54,656 bases of DNA. Origin: Chloroflexota bacterium. GTDB taxonomy: Bacteria; Chloroflexota; Dehalococcoidia; Lucifugimonadales; UBA3495. Position numbers and translations under genes: made by a program. The stretch is from contig JAQBVF010000024.1 in NCBI GenBank assembly GCA_027623675.1, forward strand, positions 1-54,656, read 5' to 3'. The notes under the pieces are model-generated. The model had not been told where the DNA came from, searched no databases, and worked only from the letters and a program-made list of their open reading frames with translations. Shown piece after piece: positions 38,821-48,714 of the stretch. Every line of letters begins with the position of its first letter. Position 1 is the first letter of the stretch.

Positions 38821-39333
38821 TTAGCGCGGGCCGGATACGATGGTGGCCACGGCGCATGCCGCGATGCCTTCTTCCCTTCCCACGAACCCCATATAGTCGG
38901 TTGTGGTGATCTTTACGCTGACGCGGTCCGGGGAGACGGACAGGCATCTTGCCAGGTTCTCCCGCATCTCGGAACGGAAGGCGCTGAGGCTGGGTTTTTG
39001 CGCCAGTATTGTAGCATCAACGTTTGAGAGCCGCCAACCAGCCTCGCCGACCAGGGCGCCGACCCGCTCCAGCAGGACCAGGCTGGAGATGTCCTTGTAC
39101 TGGGCGTCGCTGGAGGGGAAATGCAGCCCCTTGTCGCCCAGGTTGGCCGCCCCCAGCAGGGCGTCCATGACCGCATGGACCAGCACATCGCCGTCGCTGT
39201 GGCCGGAGAGGCCCTTGTCGTGGGGAACGTCCACGCCGCCCAGCACCAGCCGCCGCCCCCCGGCCAGAGGGTGAGAGTCGAAGCCGATCCCGGACCGGAA
39301 TTCCGAGGGTTCGTTGTTAGCGGGCGTGGTCAT
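38821..39333 (-). CDS. ispF: 2-C-methyl-D-erythritol 2,4-cyclodiphosphate synthase
   Basis: GIGFDSH, GHSDGDVLVHA, GFVGREEGIA. Confidence 0.95.
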   Translation of the reverse strand: MTTPANNEPSEFRSGIGFDSHPLAGGRRLVLGGVDVPHDKGLSGHSDGDVLVHAVMDALLGAANLGDKGLHFPSSDAQYKDISSLVLLERVGALVGEAGWRLSNVDATILAQKPSLSAFRSEMRENLARCLSVSPDRVSVKITTTDYMGFVGREEGIAACAVATIVSGPR

Positions 39334-39369
39334 GCCGCAGGCCAATATCGAATCGAATAGAGGAAACGC

Positions 39370-42045
39370 CTATCTGTATTCCCGGAAATTATCAATCAGC
39401 TCCTTGAACGAGGTCGGTTTGTACTTCTCGAAGCCGTCCTCGTCCACGTAGACGTAATCATATACAACACTACTTTGCACGCGGTTGATGTCTTCGCACC
39501 ACTGCCTTAGCCGCTCCATCTTCAGCGGCACGTCTAGGTCCTCTCGTCCTTTGGTTTCGACGATAAAGGTTTTCTTGTCCGAGACTTTCACCAGAAAATC
39601 CGGGTAATAGTTGGAAATGTTGCCGTCGGCATTGACGTAATCCAGCTTGAAATTCACGGCGAAGTAATTCTTGGCGTAGGCCAGCACCTCGCTATCCTCA
39701 AGAAAACGGGCGAATCTGAGTTCAAGATTGTTGTCACCAACCAGCCTATTGAAAACGCTCTTGCTGGGCACTAAGTAGGGTTGGTCCTTGGTCACGAATG
39801 GGCGGGTCTTGCGTAATTTGATGGTATCGCGAATCTCAGCGTCGCCCTTGCCCATGATGGTCAATTCGTTAATCGCTTTTTTGAAAGTCTCAATCAGTGT
39901 TTTGGTGGCCGCAAGTTCGGACATATTACGGAGGGTGTTGGGGTCTTCCAGGTCAACGGGGCGGTCGAATAATTGGCCTTGGACAAAAGATTTGACCTTG
40001 CCGTACAGCACGTCGTAGCCGCTGACTAGGCGTAGGTCTTTCATGATGGTTTGGCTGAAATAGCCGATCACGCTCCGGTAGTCGGCGATGCCAGCCGTAT
40101 CCAAAACGGTGGTATGGGTGGTCTCGCCGGTGGTGATGTCTTTGAAGATGATCTCACGCTGTTGTTCTTCGGTGAACTGGCGGTAGTTAACCTTGTTGTT
40201 CCCCAGGTCTCCAACTTCCAAACCGGCCAGGTTCTTGTACTCCCGGTACACTCGTGGGGTAAGCACGGGAATTTCAATGTCCAGGGCGTTGAGGTCCTTC
40301 TTCTCGTTTTCATTATCAATTTCCACAACCAAGGGGGTCTTGGGCTGCGTCCCTTCGCCCATGGGCTTGCGCTCCAACTCAACGCCTTCGGCTTGGATGG
40401 ATTCCACAAAGTCCATAAATGCTTCCGTGCCCACCACGCTGACTTCTTCTTTCTCGCTGTCGGGGTACATCTTACGCAGGCCCCGCCCCAGGGTCTGTTC
40501 GGGCAGGATGTTGCTTTTGGCTGAGTATGGGCGCAGCCCAACAATGGTGGTGACATTGCGCACGTCCCATCCCTCTTTGAGCACCATTACGGAGACGATT
40601 GCCTTGTACTTGTTGTCCTGACCGTCGATGGCGTTGGCCAACCCGCGAAGCCGTTCTAGCTCCTCTTTACCTTTGCCCGTCGCCGCTTCGGAAATCTCAC
40701 CGTTGTTTCGGGTGTGAATCACCAGAACCGCGTCCTTCAAGTCGGGGTAATTGCCCTCCAGATACTCGGCAACGTCGTCACAGTTTTGGGTGTCGTCGGT
40801 CATGACAAAAAGGATTGCCTTCTTGCCCATCTTGTCATGCACGGCATAGGCATTGCGCCACTCGATCACGCCCAAGTCGATGTAGTCGGCGTACTTCTCG
40901 GTGTACTTGACACTCTGGCGTTCCACCAGCTTAGCCCGGCTGGGGGCGTCGGGCAGGACCGGGTGCTTGACTATGTTCTGAGAAATGGCTTCCACCAGCG
41001 GGTAATCGGCCACGGTCTGCACGAAGATTGCGCCGTTGTTGTGCCTGGGGGTGGCGGTCACGTCTATTTCAAGTGCCAGGGCGGACCCCTTCTGCTTGAG
41101 CCGGTTGTGGATATCCTCGATGGACTTGAACCAGGCCATCTTGGGGTCGTGAATGTGGTGCGCCTCGTCGTTGAACACTGCCAGCTCGTCAACGTCTCGG
41201 ACAATCATGCCCAGGTCCACCTTGGAGTCGGTGGTCGAGCCGGAGGGCCGTTTGCCCAGGAAATAGTCCATGGTGTTGTCGTCATCGGGTGAGGCGGGAA
41301 CGTCGTCGCCGGCGTAGACGCGGTGGATGTTGGTCAGAAAGATGTTGCCGGTGGGTCTGGTGATGTTTACCTGGTCCTGCTTGTGCAGGGTTAGTTGGAA
41401 ATCGTCACGCCAGTTGCGCCCGTCCACGCCGTTATCGGGCAGCACCGGGTCGGCGAAGAAAATGCGGAGGCCACCGAAATCCCGGTATAGCCGGTCGAGC
41501 ACGATGATGTTGGGGACAATCACCAAAAAGTTACGCGCCAGTTCGGAGTCCGGCTCGTACAGCCTGTGGAAGTAGCTCCAGGCCAGGGCTAGGCTCATGA
41601 CCTTGGTCTTGCCGGTGCCGGTGGCCATCTTTATCACCAGCCTCCGCCAGGTCTCGTCGAACATGCCGGTCGAGACCGCTCCTGAACTATCGAAGCGCAT
41701 CAAGTCGTACTTATCTTTAGCCCTTACGACGTCGTACAGGTAAATGATGGTTTCCAGGGCCTCCCGCTGGGCGAAGTAATACTGGAACTCGGCCATCGCG
41801 CCATCGGACTGGGGCAACAGGTGCGGCGTGTTGAACCACCAATTGAGGAGGCTGCGGCTGGTGTCGGTAGCCCCGGCGTAGCTTTTGTCCCGCCATGCTT
41901 TAACTTGCTTGCGCAGTTCCGGTACCAATGGCGGCAACAACTTGTCCATGGTGGTCTCGCGCAATGCTTCGTCAGCGGGGAACCAACGGATATCCGGGTC
42001 GAGGATCGCGTGGGGGGACTGGGGGAAATCAGGGTGCAGGGCCAT
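39370..42045 (-). CDS. res: Type III restriction endonuclease subunit
   Basis: MATGTGKT, NDEAHH, TATP, LKEGWDV, EQTLGRGLR helicase motifs; C-terminal YYPDF...VETKG nuclease. Confidence 0.9.
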   Translation of the reverse strand: MALHPDFPQSPHAILDPDIRWFPADEALRETTMDKLLPPLVPELRKQVKAWRDKSYAGATDTSRSLLNWWFNTPHLLPQSDGAMAEFQYYFAQREALETIIYLYDVVRAKDKYDLMRFDSSGAVSTGMFDETWRRLVIKMATGTGKTKVMSLALAWSYFHRLYEPDSELARNFLVIVPNIIVLDRLYRDFGGLRIFFADPVLPDNGVDGRNWRDDFQLTLHKQDQVNITRPTGNIFLTNIHRVYAGDDVPASPDDDNTMDYFLGKRPSGSTTDSKVDLGMIVRDVDELAVFNDEAHHIHDPKMAWFKSIEDIHNRLKQKGSALALEIDVTATPRHNNGAIFVQTVADYPLVEAISQNIVKHPVLPDAPSRAKLVERQSVKYTEKYADYIDLGVIEWRNAYAVHDKMGKKAILFVMTDDTQNCDDVAEYLEGNYPDLKDAVLVIHTRNNGEISEAATGKGKEELERLRGLANAIDGQDNKYKAIVSVMVLKEGWDVRNVTTIVGLRPYSAKSNILPEQTLGRGLRKMYPDSEKEEVSVVGTEAFMDFVESIQAEGVELERKPMGEGTQPKTPLVVEIDNENEKKDLNALDIEIPVLTPRVYREYKNLAGLEVGDLGNNKVNYRQFTEEQQREIIFKDITTGETTHTTVLDTAGIADYRSVIGYFSQTIMKDLRLVSGYDVLYGKVKSFVQGQLFDRPVDLEDPNTLRNMSELAATKTLIETFKKAINELTIMGKGDAEIRDTIKLRKTRPFVTKDQPYLVPSKSVFNRLVGDNNLELRFARFLEDSEVLAYAKNYFAVNFKLDYVNADGNISNYYPDFLVKVSDKKTFIVETKGREDLDVPLKMERLRQWCEDINRVQSSVVYDYVYVDEDGFEKYKPTSFKELIDNFREYR

Positions 42046-42129
42046 ATGGCCTAACCTCTTTCAACAGATGATGGGCCTCTGTAATGTCTGTAAATCATAA
42101 AGCTTCTTACCGTCATCGGCGGCCTCCCA

Positions 42130-42482
42130 CTGTCATTTCGACCGAAGGGAGAAATCTTGGCCCCATTCCGAGCTCAAATCTTTCCACGCAGGGTTTTGCT
42201 CATGAACCAAGTTGTTCTTCTTTTCACGACGCCACTTCTTTATTTCCTTCTTTCTTTCCAGTGCCGCCGTGACATCAGTAGTGTGTTCGAAATACACAAG
42301 TTTGCTCACATTGTACTTTTCGGTAAACCCTTTCAGAGCCTTGGTTTTGTGTTCGTAAACCCTTCGTTCGAGGTTGTTCGTAACCCCGACATACATCACC
42401 TTGTTGTTCCAATTGGTCAGCAGATAGACATAGTAGGTTCGTTCCGAGGTCACAAGATTTATCCCTTCGGTCGAAATGACAG
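42130..42482 (-). mobile_element. Putative minimal element: GIY-YIG ORF bounded by 30-bp inverted repeats
   Basis: CTGTCATTTCGACCGAAGGGAGAAATCTTG (42130-42159) matches the reverse complement of 42453-42482 at 29/30 positions; lower GC inside. Confidence 0.7.
42133..42453 (-). CDS. Small GIY-YIG nuclease (UPF0213/YhbQ-like)
   Basis: YYVYLL...MYVGVTNNLERRVYEH, FT.KYNV.KLVYFE, IKKWRREKK, NP.W.DL. Confidence 0.9.
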   Translation of the reverse strand: MTSERTYYVYLLTNWNNKVMYVGVTNNLERRVYEHKTKALKGFTEKYNVSKLVYFEHTTDVTAALERKKEIKKWRREKKNNLVHEQNPAWKDLSSEWGQDFSLRSK

Positions 42483-42500
42483 ATCACGGCGTGATGAAGG

Positions 42501-44807
42501 TTATCTAATAGTTACCTCGACAATCGTCATGGTGTCGTTGCCAAAGATGTCCACGACTTTTACGGCCAACTTGCGCCGCCCCGGAGGACATTCGCGGGCG
42601 ACGCTGGTCAGTTCCAGGGAGCGGTCTTTCTTGGTGCGGAAGGACTGCCATTCGTTCTCGAAGATGTAATCCCCGGTCCAGACCTCTTCGTACTCGGTCA
42701 GGGCCGCTTGTTCGGGCCGCTCCATGCTCGCCATCTGCGCCTGCCTGGCTGGCTCACGCTTGACCCGGATGATCTCCCGCTTGTTCTCGAAATTGAAGTC
42801 CACCGCCCAATAATCGATCCAGTCCGTCCAGTTCTGGGTGAGCAATTCCCGGCTGACCAGGCCGTTGGCGTCTTTGCTCACCTTCACGATTTGACCTTGC
42901 TCCACCACGATCCTGCTAGCCTTATCCTTGAGAGTGGCTTCGGCGTTGGCGATGGAGTCCTGGGAGTAGAAGACGGAGAAATCGGTGAGCTGCACGGGCA
43001 CCTGATTGGCGTTGACGCGGGGCGTGACCTCGATGAATGACACATCGTGGAAGACCACCTGATTGCGGTCCACCGCCCGTTTGTCGAATACCTCAGCGGG
43101 GATGTACTTGGGGGCGATGTCGATGCCCTTGGCTCGGGCCTCGTCCAGCACGTTGGGGAACAGGCCCATCTCGAACTCGAAGCCCAGGATGTCGACCCGG
43201 GTGATGTGCTTCTGGCGGCACTCCAGGATAACCTCTTCCACGTACAGCCGGGTGACCGGCAGGTTGACCGGCCCCACCGCCACCAGCCGCCCGGCCTTCT
43301 TGCCGTGGAAGGTCTGAAATCCGTCGGTCTTTTCGGCCCTATAGGCCCGCAGGATCAGGTCTAGGAAGGCGGCTTCCTTCTCCTGCATCTGTTGCTGCTG
43401 TTCGGCTTCCCGAAGGTTGGGATTCACGCCGATGTAGTGCTGGCGCTCGTACTTGCCCAGGTTGAGGACCTCGAAGGCGCGGTAGTCCTGGCCTTTGGCT
43501 TTCAACTCCCGCTGGACGCCAATCATTCGCTTGCGGGTGGTGTGGATGGCGAATTTACCGAGGTCCGATACGATCCACTTACGGCCCAGCTTTTCGGCTA
43601 CGGCGGCAGTAGTGCCAGAACCGACGAAGAAGTCAGCTACCAAGTCACCCTCGTTGGATGAGGCCTTGATGATTCGGTCGAGCAGGGCCTCGGGTTTTTG
43701 GGTAGGGTAGTTTAATATTTCGGCATTCCTTCCCTTTAGCAGCTTGATATCCACCCACATATTCGTGATGAGTTGGCCTTCATACGAATCGAGGTATATC
43801 TTTTTGTAAACCTGCCTACTCTTATCTTCGGGATAATATATCAATCCTTGGCTGTCGAGTTCCTCCATCGCTTCCCGCGAATAGCGCCACCCGTTTGCTG
43901 GCGTCTTGTACCCTTTAAAGTCATAGTACAAGTTCGCTCGGAAGGTGGGGCTACCGCAGACGTTCAACATGAACCGTCGGCCATCGGGGTCTGACCGCGT
44001 GAACATCTGTTCCACGTAATCTTGATCTGGCTCCATGTAAACCTGATTCCAAATTGGGGAGTCAGTTTTTGAATATAGATAAATTGTGTCGGTGTTTACA
44101 GACATCTTGTTCATGTTGCTCAGCGCAGAGCCGCCTTTTCGCTTCCATATGATCTCGTTGACCATGTTGCGCTCGGAGAAAACCTCACTCAACGCTTGCC
44201 GTATGAAGCTATTGACTCGATAATCGCAGTGCACATATATACTGCCATCATCGGCCAGCAAGTCCCGCATCAGCACCAGCCGCTCGTAGATCATGGCGAT
44301 GAACGAATCCGCGCCCTTGCCCCAGGTGTCCCGGTAGGCGATCTCCTCCAGGATGTTGGGCCGCTTGGTGAAGGTGCCGCCGCCGATCTCGATGTCCATG
44401 CTGAAATCAGCGCCTACGTCGAAGGGCGGGTCGATGTAGATCAGCTTGATGCCGTCCTGGGCTTCGATCTCCTCCCGCAGCGGGCCGTTCTTCAGGCTGG
44501 AGAGGACCAGTTTGTTGTCGCCCCAGATCAGCTTGTTGGTCCAGCCCTTTAGCTGGCGGCCCCGGTCGTCCAGGTCAAACAGGCTCCCCTGCAACCGGGT
44601 GTCCGTCTCGGCGCGGGGCTCGTCCACCTGCTCGATCACCTGAAATGGCAGCACGATGTTGCTGACCTCGTTGGTCTTGCCGTTCCAGACCAACTCAACT
44701 TCCCGCTTGTCCTCGAACAAAAGAAAGCGGTACTTGTCGGGCAGGGGCCGGTCGGCTTCCAGGTAACGGATTATCTCTTGTTGCTCTTGTTCCGTCAGTC
44801 GCGGCAT
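42501..44807 (-). CDS. mod: Type III adenine methyltransferase (Mod, beta class)
   Basis: LIYIDPPF motif [21 protein letters not shown] motif [12 protein letters not shown]-terminus; upstream of res. Confidence 0.9.
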
Positions 44808-44928
44808 GAATCTACCCTACTGCGCCTTTCGTTGGGTGACCGATGGGTTGAATAACTTTACACCACTGACCGGTTCGGTGAACAGCGGCGCGTGTCCATT
44901 CGGGGACCGTGACTGCGCCTAAGTTCGG

Positions 44929-44955
44929 GTCCTTCGACAAGCTCAGGATGAGCGG
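44929..44955 (+). repeat. REP-like repeat, copy 2
   Basis: GTCCTTCGACAAGCTCAGGATGAGCGG at the ispD/mod junction. Confidence 0.75.
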
Positions 44956-44980
44956 ACGGAGGGCGGTAGTGTTGTTGGAA

Positions 44981-45673
44981 TCAGGTGGTGGACGACGCCT
45001 TCAAGAACGCTTCGGCGATGATCAGGTCGCCGGCGGTGGTGACTTTGATGTTCTCGTAGGCGCCCAGGAACATCTTTACGGGGTGGCCTTGGGCTTCGAC
45101 CATGGCGGCGTCGTCGGTCACGTCGCCGGCGTGGGTGCGGTGGGTCTCCAGCAGCAGGCCGTAGCGGAACACCTGCGGGGTTTGGGCGGCCCAGAGGAGG
45201 GAGCGGTCGGGGGTGTCGCTGACCATCTGTTCGTCTGAAACCAGCTTGATGGTGTCTTTCACGGGCACTCCGGCCACGGCCGACCCGCATTCGGCGGCGG
45301 CGTCCAGTCCGCGTTGCAGCATGGCTTCATCGAAGCAGGGGCGGGCGCCGTCGTGGACTATCACCCAGCCGCAGGGCGCCAGTTGTTCCAGCCCGTTCCG
45401 CACCGAGTCCTGGCGTCTTTGGCCGCCGGCGCAGACCTGGGCAACCTTGCGGTAGTTCTGTCGCCGGACCAGTTCTTGGCCGCGTTCCACGGAGTCTTCG
45501 GCCAGGACCAAGACGATCTGGCTGATGCGGGGGGAGGACTCGAGGCGGCCCAGGGTATGGGCGATCAGGGGCAGGCCAAGGATGGGGGCAAAGGTCTTGT
45601 CCACGCCTCCCATCCTGGTGCTGCGCCCGGCAGCCACCACTATCGCGCCTACATCGGTCAACGGGGCAGTCAA
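44981..45673 (-). CDS. ispD: 2-C-methyl-D-erythritol 4-phosphate cytidylyltransferase
   Basis: AAGRSTRMG..DK, GG.RRQDSV, VHDGARP, AQTPQVF, TDDA, NIKVTT. Confidence 0.95.
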   Translation of the reverse strand: MTAPLTDVGAIVVAAGRSTRMGGVDKTFAPILGLPLIAHTLGRLESSPRISQIVLVLAEDSVERGQELVRRQNYRKVAQVCAGGQRRQDSVRNGLEQLAPCGWVIVHDGARPCFDEAMLQRGLDAAAECGSAVAGVPVKDTIKLVSDEQMVSDTPDRSLLWAAQTPQVFRYGLLLETHRTHAGDVTDDAAMVEAQGHPVKMFLGAYENIKVTTAGDLIIAEAFLKASSTT

Positions 45674-48687: not shown

Positions 48688-48714
48688 GTCCTTCGACAGG
48701 CCCAGGATGAGCGG
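48688..48714 (+). repeat. REP-like repeat, copy 3
   Basis: GTCCTTCGACAGGCCCAGGATGAGCGG. Confidence 0.75.

Follow-up and report, generated by a model that had tools for sequence, protein, structure and literature searches.

Ssn nucleases are small single-domain GIY-YIG proteins of the group cd10448 (GIY-YIG_unchar_3; Chenal et al. 2025, PMC11893778). According to that paper, Ssn binds an oriented hairpin in single-stranded DNA only and cuts a few bases upstream, 5' of the hairpin; the exchanges Y6A, Y17A and E64A in SsnA abolish cutting while binding is kept, and neither RNA nor double-stranded DNA was bound by SsnA. Repeats lie on both sides of 42% of the Ssn homologs, and the NTS-ssnA-NTS layout is likened there to insertion sequences, the idea of a mobile element being raised as a hypothesis. 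In Neisseria meningitidis, the paper presents SsnA as an ssDNA restriction mechanism that limits transformation. Within the reach of our literature search, which left out most subscription papers, this was the only paper on Ssn mobility; neither a demonstration of mobility nor a further paper on Ssn in restriction-modification (R-M) junctions was found.

Three other groups resemble the locus described here in part. The CGTC-tagged REPs, which comprise four families with CGTC-1 being the Neisseria dRS3, are apparently without a dedicated transposase according to Di Nocera et al. 2013 (PMC3733652); they share with our locus the TGTC head, a stem opening with A-T pairs and the arrangement as inverted dimers, whereas a nuclease gene sits inside the dimer at our locus. 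REPtrons/RAYT (TnpA-REP) and IS200/IS605 elements also place a small gene between inverted hairpin repeats and use single-stranded DNA as substrate, as the likeness to Ssn predicts here, but their HUH tyrosine transposases can rejoin DNA and our element holds no HUH protein. GIY-YIG homing endonucleases of the I-TevI type are alike in catalytic domain, in the occupation of recurring sites and in signs of spread between alleles; unlike them, our protein has no DNA-binding extension and no intron, and it scores 28.6 bits against TIGR01453, below the cut-off of 56.05.

The element analysed here lies in a 54,656-nucleotide stretch of DNA from a Chloroflexota bacterium (contig JAQBVF010000024.1 of assembly GCA_027623675.1), hereafter the window, to which all positions refer. 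We suggest, with a probability of roughly 0.7, that an Ssn gene between inward-facing hairpins entered the mod-res junction of a type III R-M operon as a unit of about 350 bp, and that its product has likely lost the ability to cut.

Anatomy and family of the element

The features of the locus are as follows.
ssn gene, 42133-42453, minus strand: 106-aa single-domain GIY-YIG nuclease with a GTG start; Y10, Y21, G23 and R31 are kept
upstream arm, 42453-42482, minus strand: SRM-like hairpin pointing at ssn and source of the SD-like GAAGGGA
downstream arm, 42130-42159, plus strand: intact SRM-like hairpin TGTC-ATTTC-GA-CCGAAGG-GA-GAAAT-C; the ORF continues through its complement to TGA
codon 68, 42250-42252, minus strand: AAG (Lys), counterpart of SsnA Glu64
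partial repeat head GTCATC, 42112-42117, plus strand: 20 nt outside the downstream arm
possible degenerate head TTCATC, 42493-42498, minus strand: 18 nt outside the upstream arm and beside the mod stop; a weak match with one mismatch
type III mod gene (context), 42501-44807, minus strand
type III res gene (context), 39370-42045, minus strand
R-M island of 5.6 kb (context), 39346-44980, no strand given: between ispF (38821-39345) and ispD (44981-45673)

A previous reading of this DNA from its letters alone (the sequence-only reading) had described two 30-bp arms, identical at 29 of 30 positions, that bound the ORF. Indeed, the arms at 42130-42159 and 42453-42482 are 30 nt each, 293 nt apart and 29/30 complementary (97%); their sole mismatch, at position 42461, costs the upstream arm one stem pair and turns the GGGAG usual in the family into GGGAT. 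The last base of the upstream arm is the G of the ssn GTG start, and the downstream arm encodes the C-terminus QDFSLRSK and the TGA stop. Other parts of that reading also stood. The element has a lower GC content (45.3%) than the genome (60.9%), mod (56.7%) or res (55.6%), and it lies between mod and res, within the 455-bp gap separating them. Pfam and NCBIfam searches gave no match to an HUH Y1 transposase at the element, and no target duplication abuts its ends, the 29-nt flanks sharing at most a 5-mer, 8 and 4 nt away; the transposase and target-site duplication of a classical insertion sequence are thus both missing, as had been claimed. Rfam returned one chance match, no promoter-like site was detected, and the single terminator-like site is at chance level. 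The 84 bp between the element and res (42046-42129) contain an SD-like GGGAGG and a 21-codon minus-strand ORF, and had no match among the fetched loci.

The ssn protein matches the Pfam GIY-YIG family (PF01541) over residues 7-80 with 53.2 bits (cut-off 22.6), a weak T5orf172 match being the only other one, and with 106 aa it has the size of the single-domain GIY-YIG Ssn proteins (<150 aa). As a stand-in for N. meningitidis SsnA in the family test (E<1e-10 over 75% of the length), we used the N. gonorrhoeae ssnA locus, which holds nine NTS matches within 1455 bp. The alignment to this stand-in is gapless, with 40% identity over 85 aa and a pairwise E of 8e-23, inside the limits of the test; within a 7.3-Gb plasmid collection, E was 4e-9. 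A second gapless alignment (42% over 90 aa) was obtained with a protein of Azospirillum lipoferum 4B, a strain among those listed in PMC11893778. A sequence search of the PDB with the ssn protein gave no matches, and in a fold search the best were UvrC GIY-YIG domains (E 0.13, probability 0.99), with none at E<=0.001. On similarity, the protein almost certainly belongs to the Ssn family, and the gapless ssnA alignment together with the CGTC/SRM-type hairpin arms shows the locus to have the repeat-ssn-repeat layout that Chenal et al. described in 2025. The pairing of a GIY-YIG gene with REP-like repeats, which the sequence-only reading had implied to be undescribed, is therefore not new: that paper (PMC11893778) already describes the family, its flanking repeats and the IS-like layout, and the repeat at our locus is a variant outside the published motif.

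With the Ssn/NTS-SRM systems, the locus shares a single-domain GIY-YIG protein of about 100 aa and oriented flanking hairpins with a GTC head and an ATC tail. It differs in the hairpin itself, built here from a stem of 5 bp, a GA/GA mismatch and a second, short stem with a cap, in contrast to the continuous palindrome of the published NTS/SRM. In addition, the arms here overlap the ORF ends, the catalytic Glu is replaced by Lys, the setting is a type III R-M operon, and the repeat of the element's subtype is not expanded in the host.

Repeats around homologous genes and in the host

Homolog statistics were drawn from the 80 best homolog loci. The published SRM pattern, HGTCWYN(0-2)YYVSBRHN(0-5)WNVSBRGN(0-2)RNCYNB, fits the downstream arm with two mismatches and the upstream arm with three; it occurs within 500 bp at one of these loci and on both sides at none, while the positive controls L269 and L270 match it. 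Oriented hairpins with an unpaired GTC head were nevertheless found on both sides of ssn genes. With a looser pattern, repeats no more than 250 bp away stand on both sides at 75 of the 80 loci and face inward at 42, against a background of 0.33 per kb at distances above 1 kb and a rate of 0.018 per kb after shuffling of the loci. The repeat pattern is thus non-random, and flanking repeats are general among the best homologs. Many of these 80 loci carry clusters of repeats in mixed orientation and variable number.

The sequence-only reading had further assigned an internal mini-hairpin to each repeat. Its 5-bp stem is complementary in 174 of 194 homolog repeats, with compensatory types ATTTC/GAAAT (104), ATTCC/GGAAT (33), ATCTC/GAGAT (21), ATCCC/GGGAT (6) and ACTTC/GAAGT (4), counts that do not represent independent events because the repeat copies are related. 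The inner hairpin of the downstream arm is weak (-2.6 kcal/mol, z -0.3), and the upstream arm does not form it. The mini-hairpin is thus backed by covariation among homolog repeats, not by stability.

Likewise, the proposal that the repeats encode SD, start and stop is correct at this locus and applies to the family in part. The same start geometry, a full repeat followed by one base and then a start codon nine codons before Y10, recurs in 16 of the 80 best homologs, so that in part of the family the use of the repeat as a ribosome-binding site is conserved; the ssn start codon itself, however, lies one base past the conserved repeat motif. The stop is taken from the TGA of the repeat in only 5/80. 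In 42/80, the stop follows W97 within three codons, and 34 of 76 homologs read into the downstream repeat in various frames; the 3' overlap of ORF and downstream arm is incidental read-through.

Partial heads (GTCAYY) occur 10-35 nt upstream of 58 of 236 perfect-stem repeats, compared with 190 of 7375 control positions, and peak at 18-24 nt. They may be the footprint of cut-and-repair just 5' of the hairpin.

In the host genome, no other copy of the element's repeat was found with up to two mismatches. The solo repeats that the sequence-only reading had suggested counting are thus missing for this subtype, which argues that the element is not propagating repeats in the host.

The host and its relatives contain further nuclease and hairpin elements. 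A 125-bp element is present in 23 full-length copies (G000 contigs C1, C4, C5, C13, C14, C17, C20 and others); its inverted, SRM-like sibling arms have stems of the ATTCC and ATTCT types, its interior is conserved, and a partial tandem head of 18 nt is often present. Only the arm aligns to our cassette, and we rejected the idea that it is a deletion derivative of it. The host also has two further Ssn genes. The one on C41 (G000:C41:59436-59729, L262) is intact, retains Glu and lies between ATCCT-stem repeats and a tandem array of partial units of about 26 nt; part of its 5' end is repeated after it in decayed form, and it is a candidate active partner of the host repeats. The other (G000:C2:10706-10936, L261) is frameshifted; repeats stand on either side of it, and partial units of 18 nt come after it in a row. 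In a congener, a broken Ssn gene (G012:C6:39962-40246, L263) lies about 1.3 kb upstream of ispF, with ispD not within 12 kb. A second hairpin family (CTCATCCTGAGC.TGTCGAAGG) has 12 genome copies, one at the ispD edge of the island (window 44931-44952, minus strand) and another near 48711 (minus strand). In the congener G016 (L266), repeats of this family lie around another GIY-YIG gene, of 97 aa, that occupies the gap between ispD and ispF. This arrangement suggests a second nuclease-and-hairpin pair.

The mod-res junction and probable movement of the unit

In congeners with readable ispD-ispF loci, the distance between these genes (alignment ends) is 70-215 bp in 10 of 12 cases and 431 and 852 bp in the remaining two; mod or res is present in none of the 12. 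As ispD and ispF adjoin in congeners without mod/res, the 5.6-kb R-M operon is an island; it was probably acquired horizontally, with the element riding in it. A DNA search of 60 relatives yielded no orthologue of the R-M genes.

Among 85 loci fetched by the Res N-terminus, 12 without the mod end in view were dropped, leaving 72 besides ours, including L151 and L180, whose mod ends are doubtful. At 42 of these junctions mod and res are directly adjacent (empty); 30 hold cargo, which is ssn in five (four distinct). The gene is thus not a fixed part of this R-M family; constant presence would have spoken against the sequence-only reading. Across L099-L181, the junction acts as a cargo slot for what, judging from motifs, are presumably nucleotidyltransferase/HEPN-like pairs, KilA-N-like and DinD-like genes and RAYT- or IS200-like transposases, and several ssn copies sit after remnants of other cargo genes. 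A cargo gene that L124 has in full length is truncated in L037, L161 and L167, where the cassette starts just past its GGTYA motif; the left junction is thereby nearly defined, at about 4 nt ahead of TGTCA. We also considered whether the element had split the mod end, as the right flank (TVGGRR-stop) resembles the usual VEVTVGGKK-stop. This idea was rejected: seven other operons share this short VEVx(I/V) mod end, and in two genomes of the same order (L082, L089) CCTCCCAC stands ahead of solo repeats, although it precedes none of 193 homolog repeats.

Eight of the 80 best homolog loci belong to this type III operon family, and at least 19 of the 80 adjoin R-M genes of types I, II or III. This neighborhood could point to an accessory defence function, in which Ssn beside an R-M system cuts incoming hairpin-bearing ssDNA much as SsnA, an ssDNA restriction mechanism in N. 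meningitidis according to PMC11893778, limits transformation in Neisseria. However, up to 61 of the 80 best homologs are found elsewhere, often in housekeeping operons; no PADLOC model matches the element; most related operons lack ssn, present in 5/72 junctions and thus no fixed R-M or defence subunit; the exact 27-mer occurs at only four places, on three viral contigs; and the present copy has lost its catalytic Glu. We therefore consider a defence role very unlikely.

The closest homologs of the ssn protein, 70-78% identical, come from many phyla, while homologs in relatives reach at most 59%. Several observations argue for movement of the gene together with its repeats. Nearest ORFs were scanned on each side at 72 of the 80 best homolog loci, and homologs also occupy junctions that we take, from Pfam matches, to be hisS-aspS, cbiB-cobQ, pntA-pntB, PBP-rodA, mutase-meaB and dapD-dapE. 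The 12 junction-dwelling Ssn proteins were rejected as one clade (p-AU 0.0001, for 45 rows chosen out of 91 and an alignment of 92 columns; 1 to 6 branches are starred), trees having been built without the four of the 80 best homologs that contain internal stops. Moreover, L063 and L015, both outside this type III operon, show 94% and 87% DNA identity to L167, a likeness that on the upstream side extends to the outer end of the repeat and no further (55-56 nt ahead of Y10) and on the downstream side stops at or just past the repeat, 33-42 nt after W97. The unit shared by these sister-clade copies is about 350 bp, similar in size to our element, and the sequence just outside the upstream repeat differs even among copies in the same junction.

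Synonymous differences agree with this picture. Eight sister-clade junction copies form 28 pairs, which are not independent and in which L037/L167 may be one population; in 14 of them the difference is lower in ssn than in res (p<0.01). For L161/L167, the values are 0.08 for ssn and 0.49 for res, and over the sister-clade pairs the two genes are uncorrelated (rho 0.08). Our own copy is more distant from the sister-clade junction copies in ssn (0.56-0.69) than in res (0.38-0.52). Recombination of the R-M operon can also decouple ssn from res.

Such recombination, or larger transfers, might even be the only way in which gene and repeats travel, as passive cargo, the enzyme seeding repeats locally rather than using them as transposon ends. 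The mod-res junction does accept many cargo genes that are unrelated and lack such repeats (of the 30 filled junctions among 72, only 5 have ssn), several junction copies come after cargo remnants, and repeat orientation and number vary among homologs, about half of which lack the clean inward layout. No clean empty site is available either: the 42 junctions without the insert include none near-identical enough to define the junction, the closest empty operon (L099) having 92.5%/82% protein identity; contigs of four runs contain no empty allele of this strain, and an X4 joint across the element gap, considered as an empty site, came from another organism. On the other side, the likeness of L063 and L015 to L167 stops at the repeats despite unrelated contexts, and the sequence just beyond the upstream repeat changes even within one junction, neither of which passive carriage would lead one to expect; we consider it unlikely. 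Based on these comparisons, we suggest that the cassette probably moved as a repeat-bounded unit, for which R-M junctions are a favoured slot. The earlier proposal of a selfish element or REP propagator would then hold for its first half, in that the unit appears to move, but not for the second, as solo repeats are lacking in the host.

State of this copy and a possible route of movement

The sequence-only reading had also noted that a conserved Glu appears as Lys, and that the copy may be impaired. Position 68 is Glu in all 80 best homologs and Lys in none, and is the sole invariant column at which our protein departs. Of the catalytic residues Tyr6, Tyr17 and Glu64 of SsnA, Y10 and Y21 are present while Glu is replaced by Lys68, which aligns to the RE glutamate of the Neisseria protein; the spacing of Y10/Y21/K68 equals that of Y6/Y17/E64. 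An assembly error is not supported, since the contigs of runs X1 and X2 (depths 11.7 and 52.2) agree with the assembly over the whole element and show no other letter at Lys68; the assembly may itself derive from these two runs. Both earlier statements are thus borne out in sequence: judged from the essential SsnA position it affects, the change probably impairs catalysis, leaving a protein that is likely unable to cut. Because Glu is kept in 80/80, Lys68 marks a damaged copy and not another family. The copy bears two signs of decay, Lys68 and the broken stem of the upstream arm.

A protein that has lost cutting might still bind hairpins and have been domesticated, for example to damp res translation or to act on the 125-bp repeats of the host. 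SsnA E64A still binds (PMC11893778), every other invariant column is retained in our protein, and 23 full-length copies of the sibling repeat element are there to be bound. Set against this, Lys68 recurs in none of the 80 best homologs, the upstream arm is damaged too, none of the 12 congeners with readable ispD-ispF has the island, and SsnA binds neither RNA nor dsDNA according to that paper. We regard a service to host or operon as highly improbable.

Returning to a mobile unit that has since decayed, we envisage that it reached the mod-res junction as a repeat-to-repeat piece of about 350 bp. Given inward-facing arms, an active copy would be expected to cut just outside each end, on opposite strands, when the DNA is single-stranded, as might occur at a replication fork or during transformation or conjugation; the binding and cutting part of this scheme is carried over by analogy from SsnA. 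GIY-YIG enzymes are hydrolytic and, to our knowledge, have no joining chemistry. Being unable to rejoin DNA, they would leave it to host repair or recombination to finish the move by copying the unit into a new site. Operon gene junctions may tolerate the unit because its upstream arm supplies a ribosome-binding site and the unit is read in the same direction as the operon. That Ssn cleavage itself drives the movement is conceivable, although we would put it at slightly less than even odds.

More tentatively still, such repeat-ssn-repeat units of about 350 bp might move autonomously and rank among the smallest mobile elements known: a purely hydrolytic GIY-YIG nuclease would make its cuts beyond the two hairpins, and host repair would complete the transfer. 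Ssn would then be the missing mobiliser of CGTC REPs, and mod-res a hot spot colonised repeatedly, with homing-like spread between R-M alleles.

As a single locus, the element has little weight, being probably a dead member of a family published in 2025. The comparison with other loci nevertheless deserves to be kept: CGTC REPs were reported to have no transposase of their own (PMC3733652), and movement of NTS-ssnA-NTS was only hypothesised (PMC11893778). The sister clade (L167, L161, L063, L015 and others) offers a sharply bounded 350-bp unit with Glu intact, which occurs both at unrelated sites and within R-M operons that predate it, and these units are ready material for a mobility assay. 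For the family at large, the GA-mismatch hairpin indicates that the published motif undercounts Ssn targets, and thereby points to a wider set of ssDNA specificities for tools.
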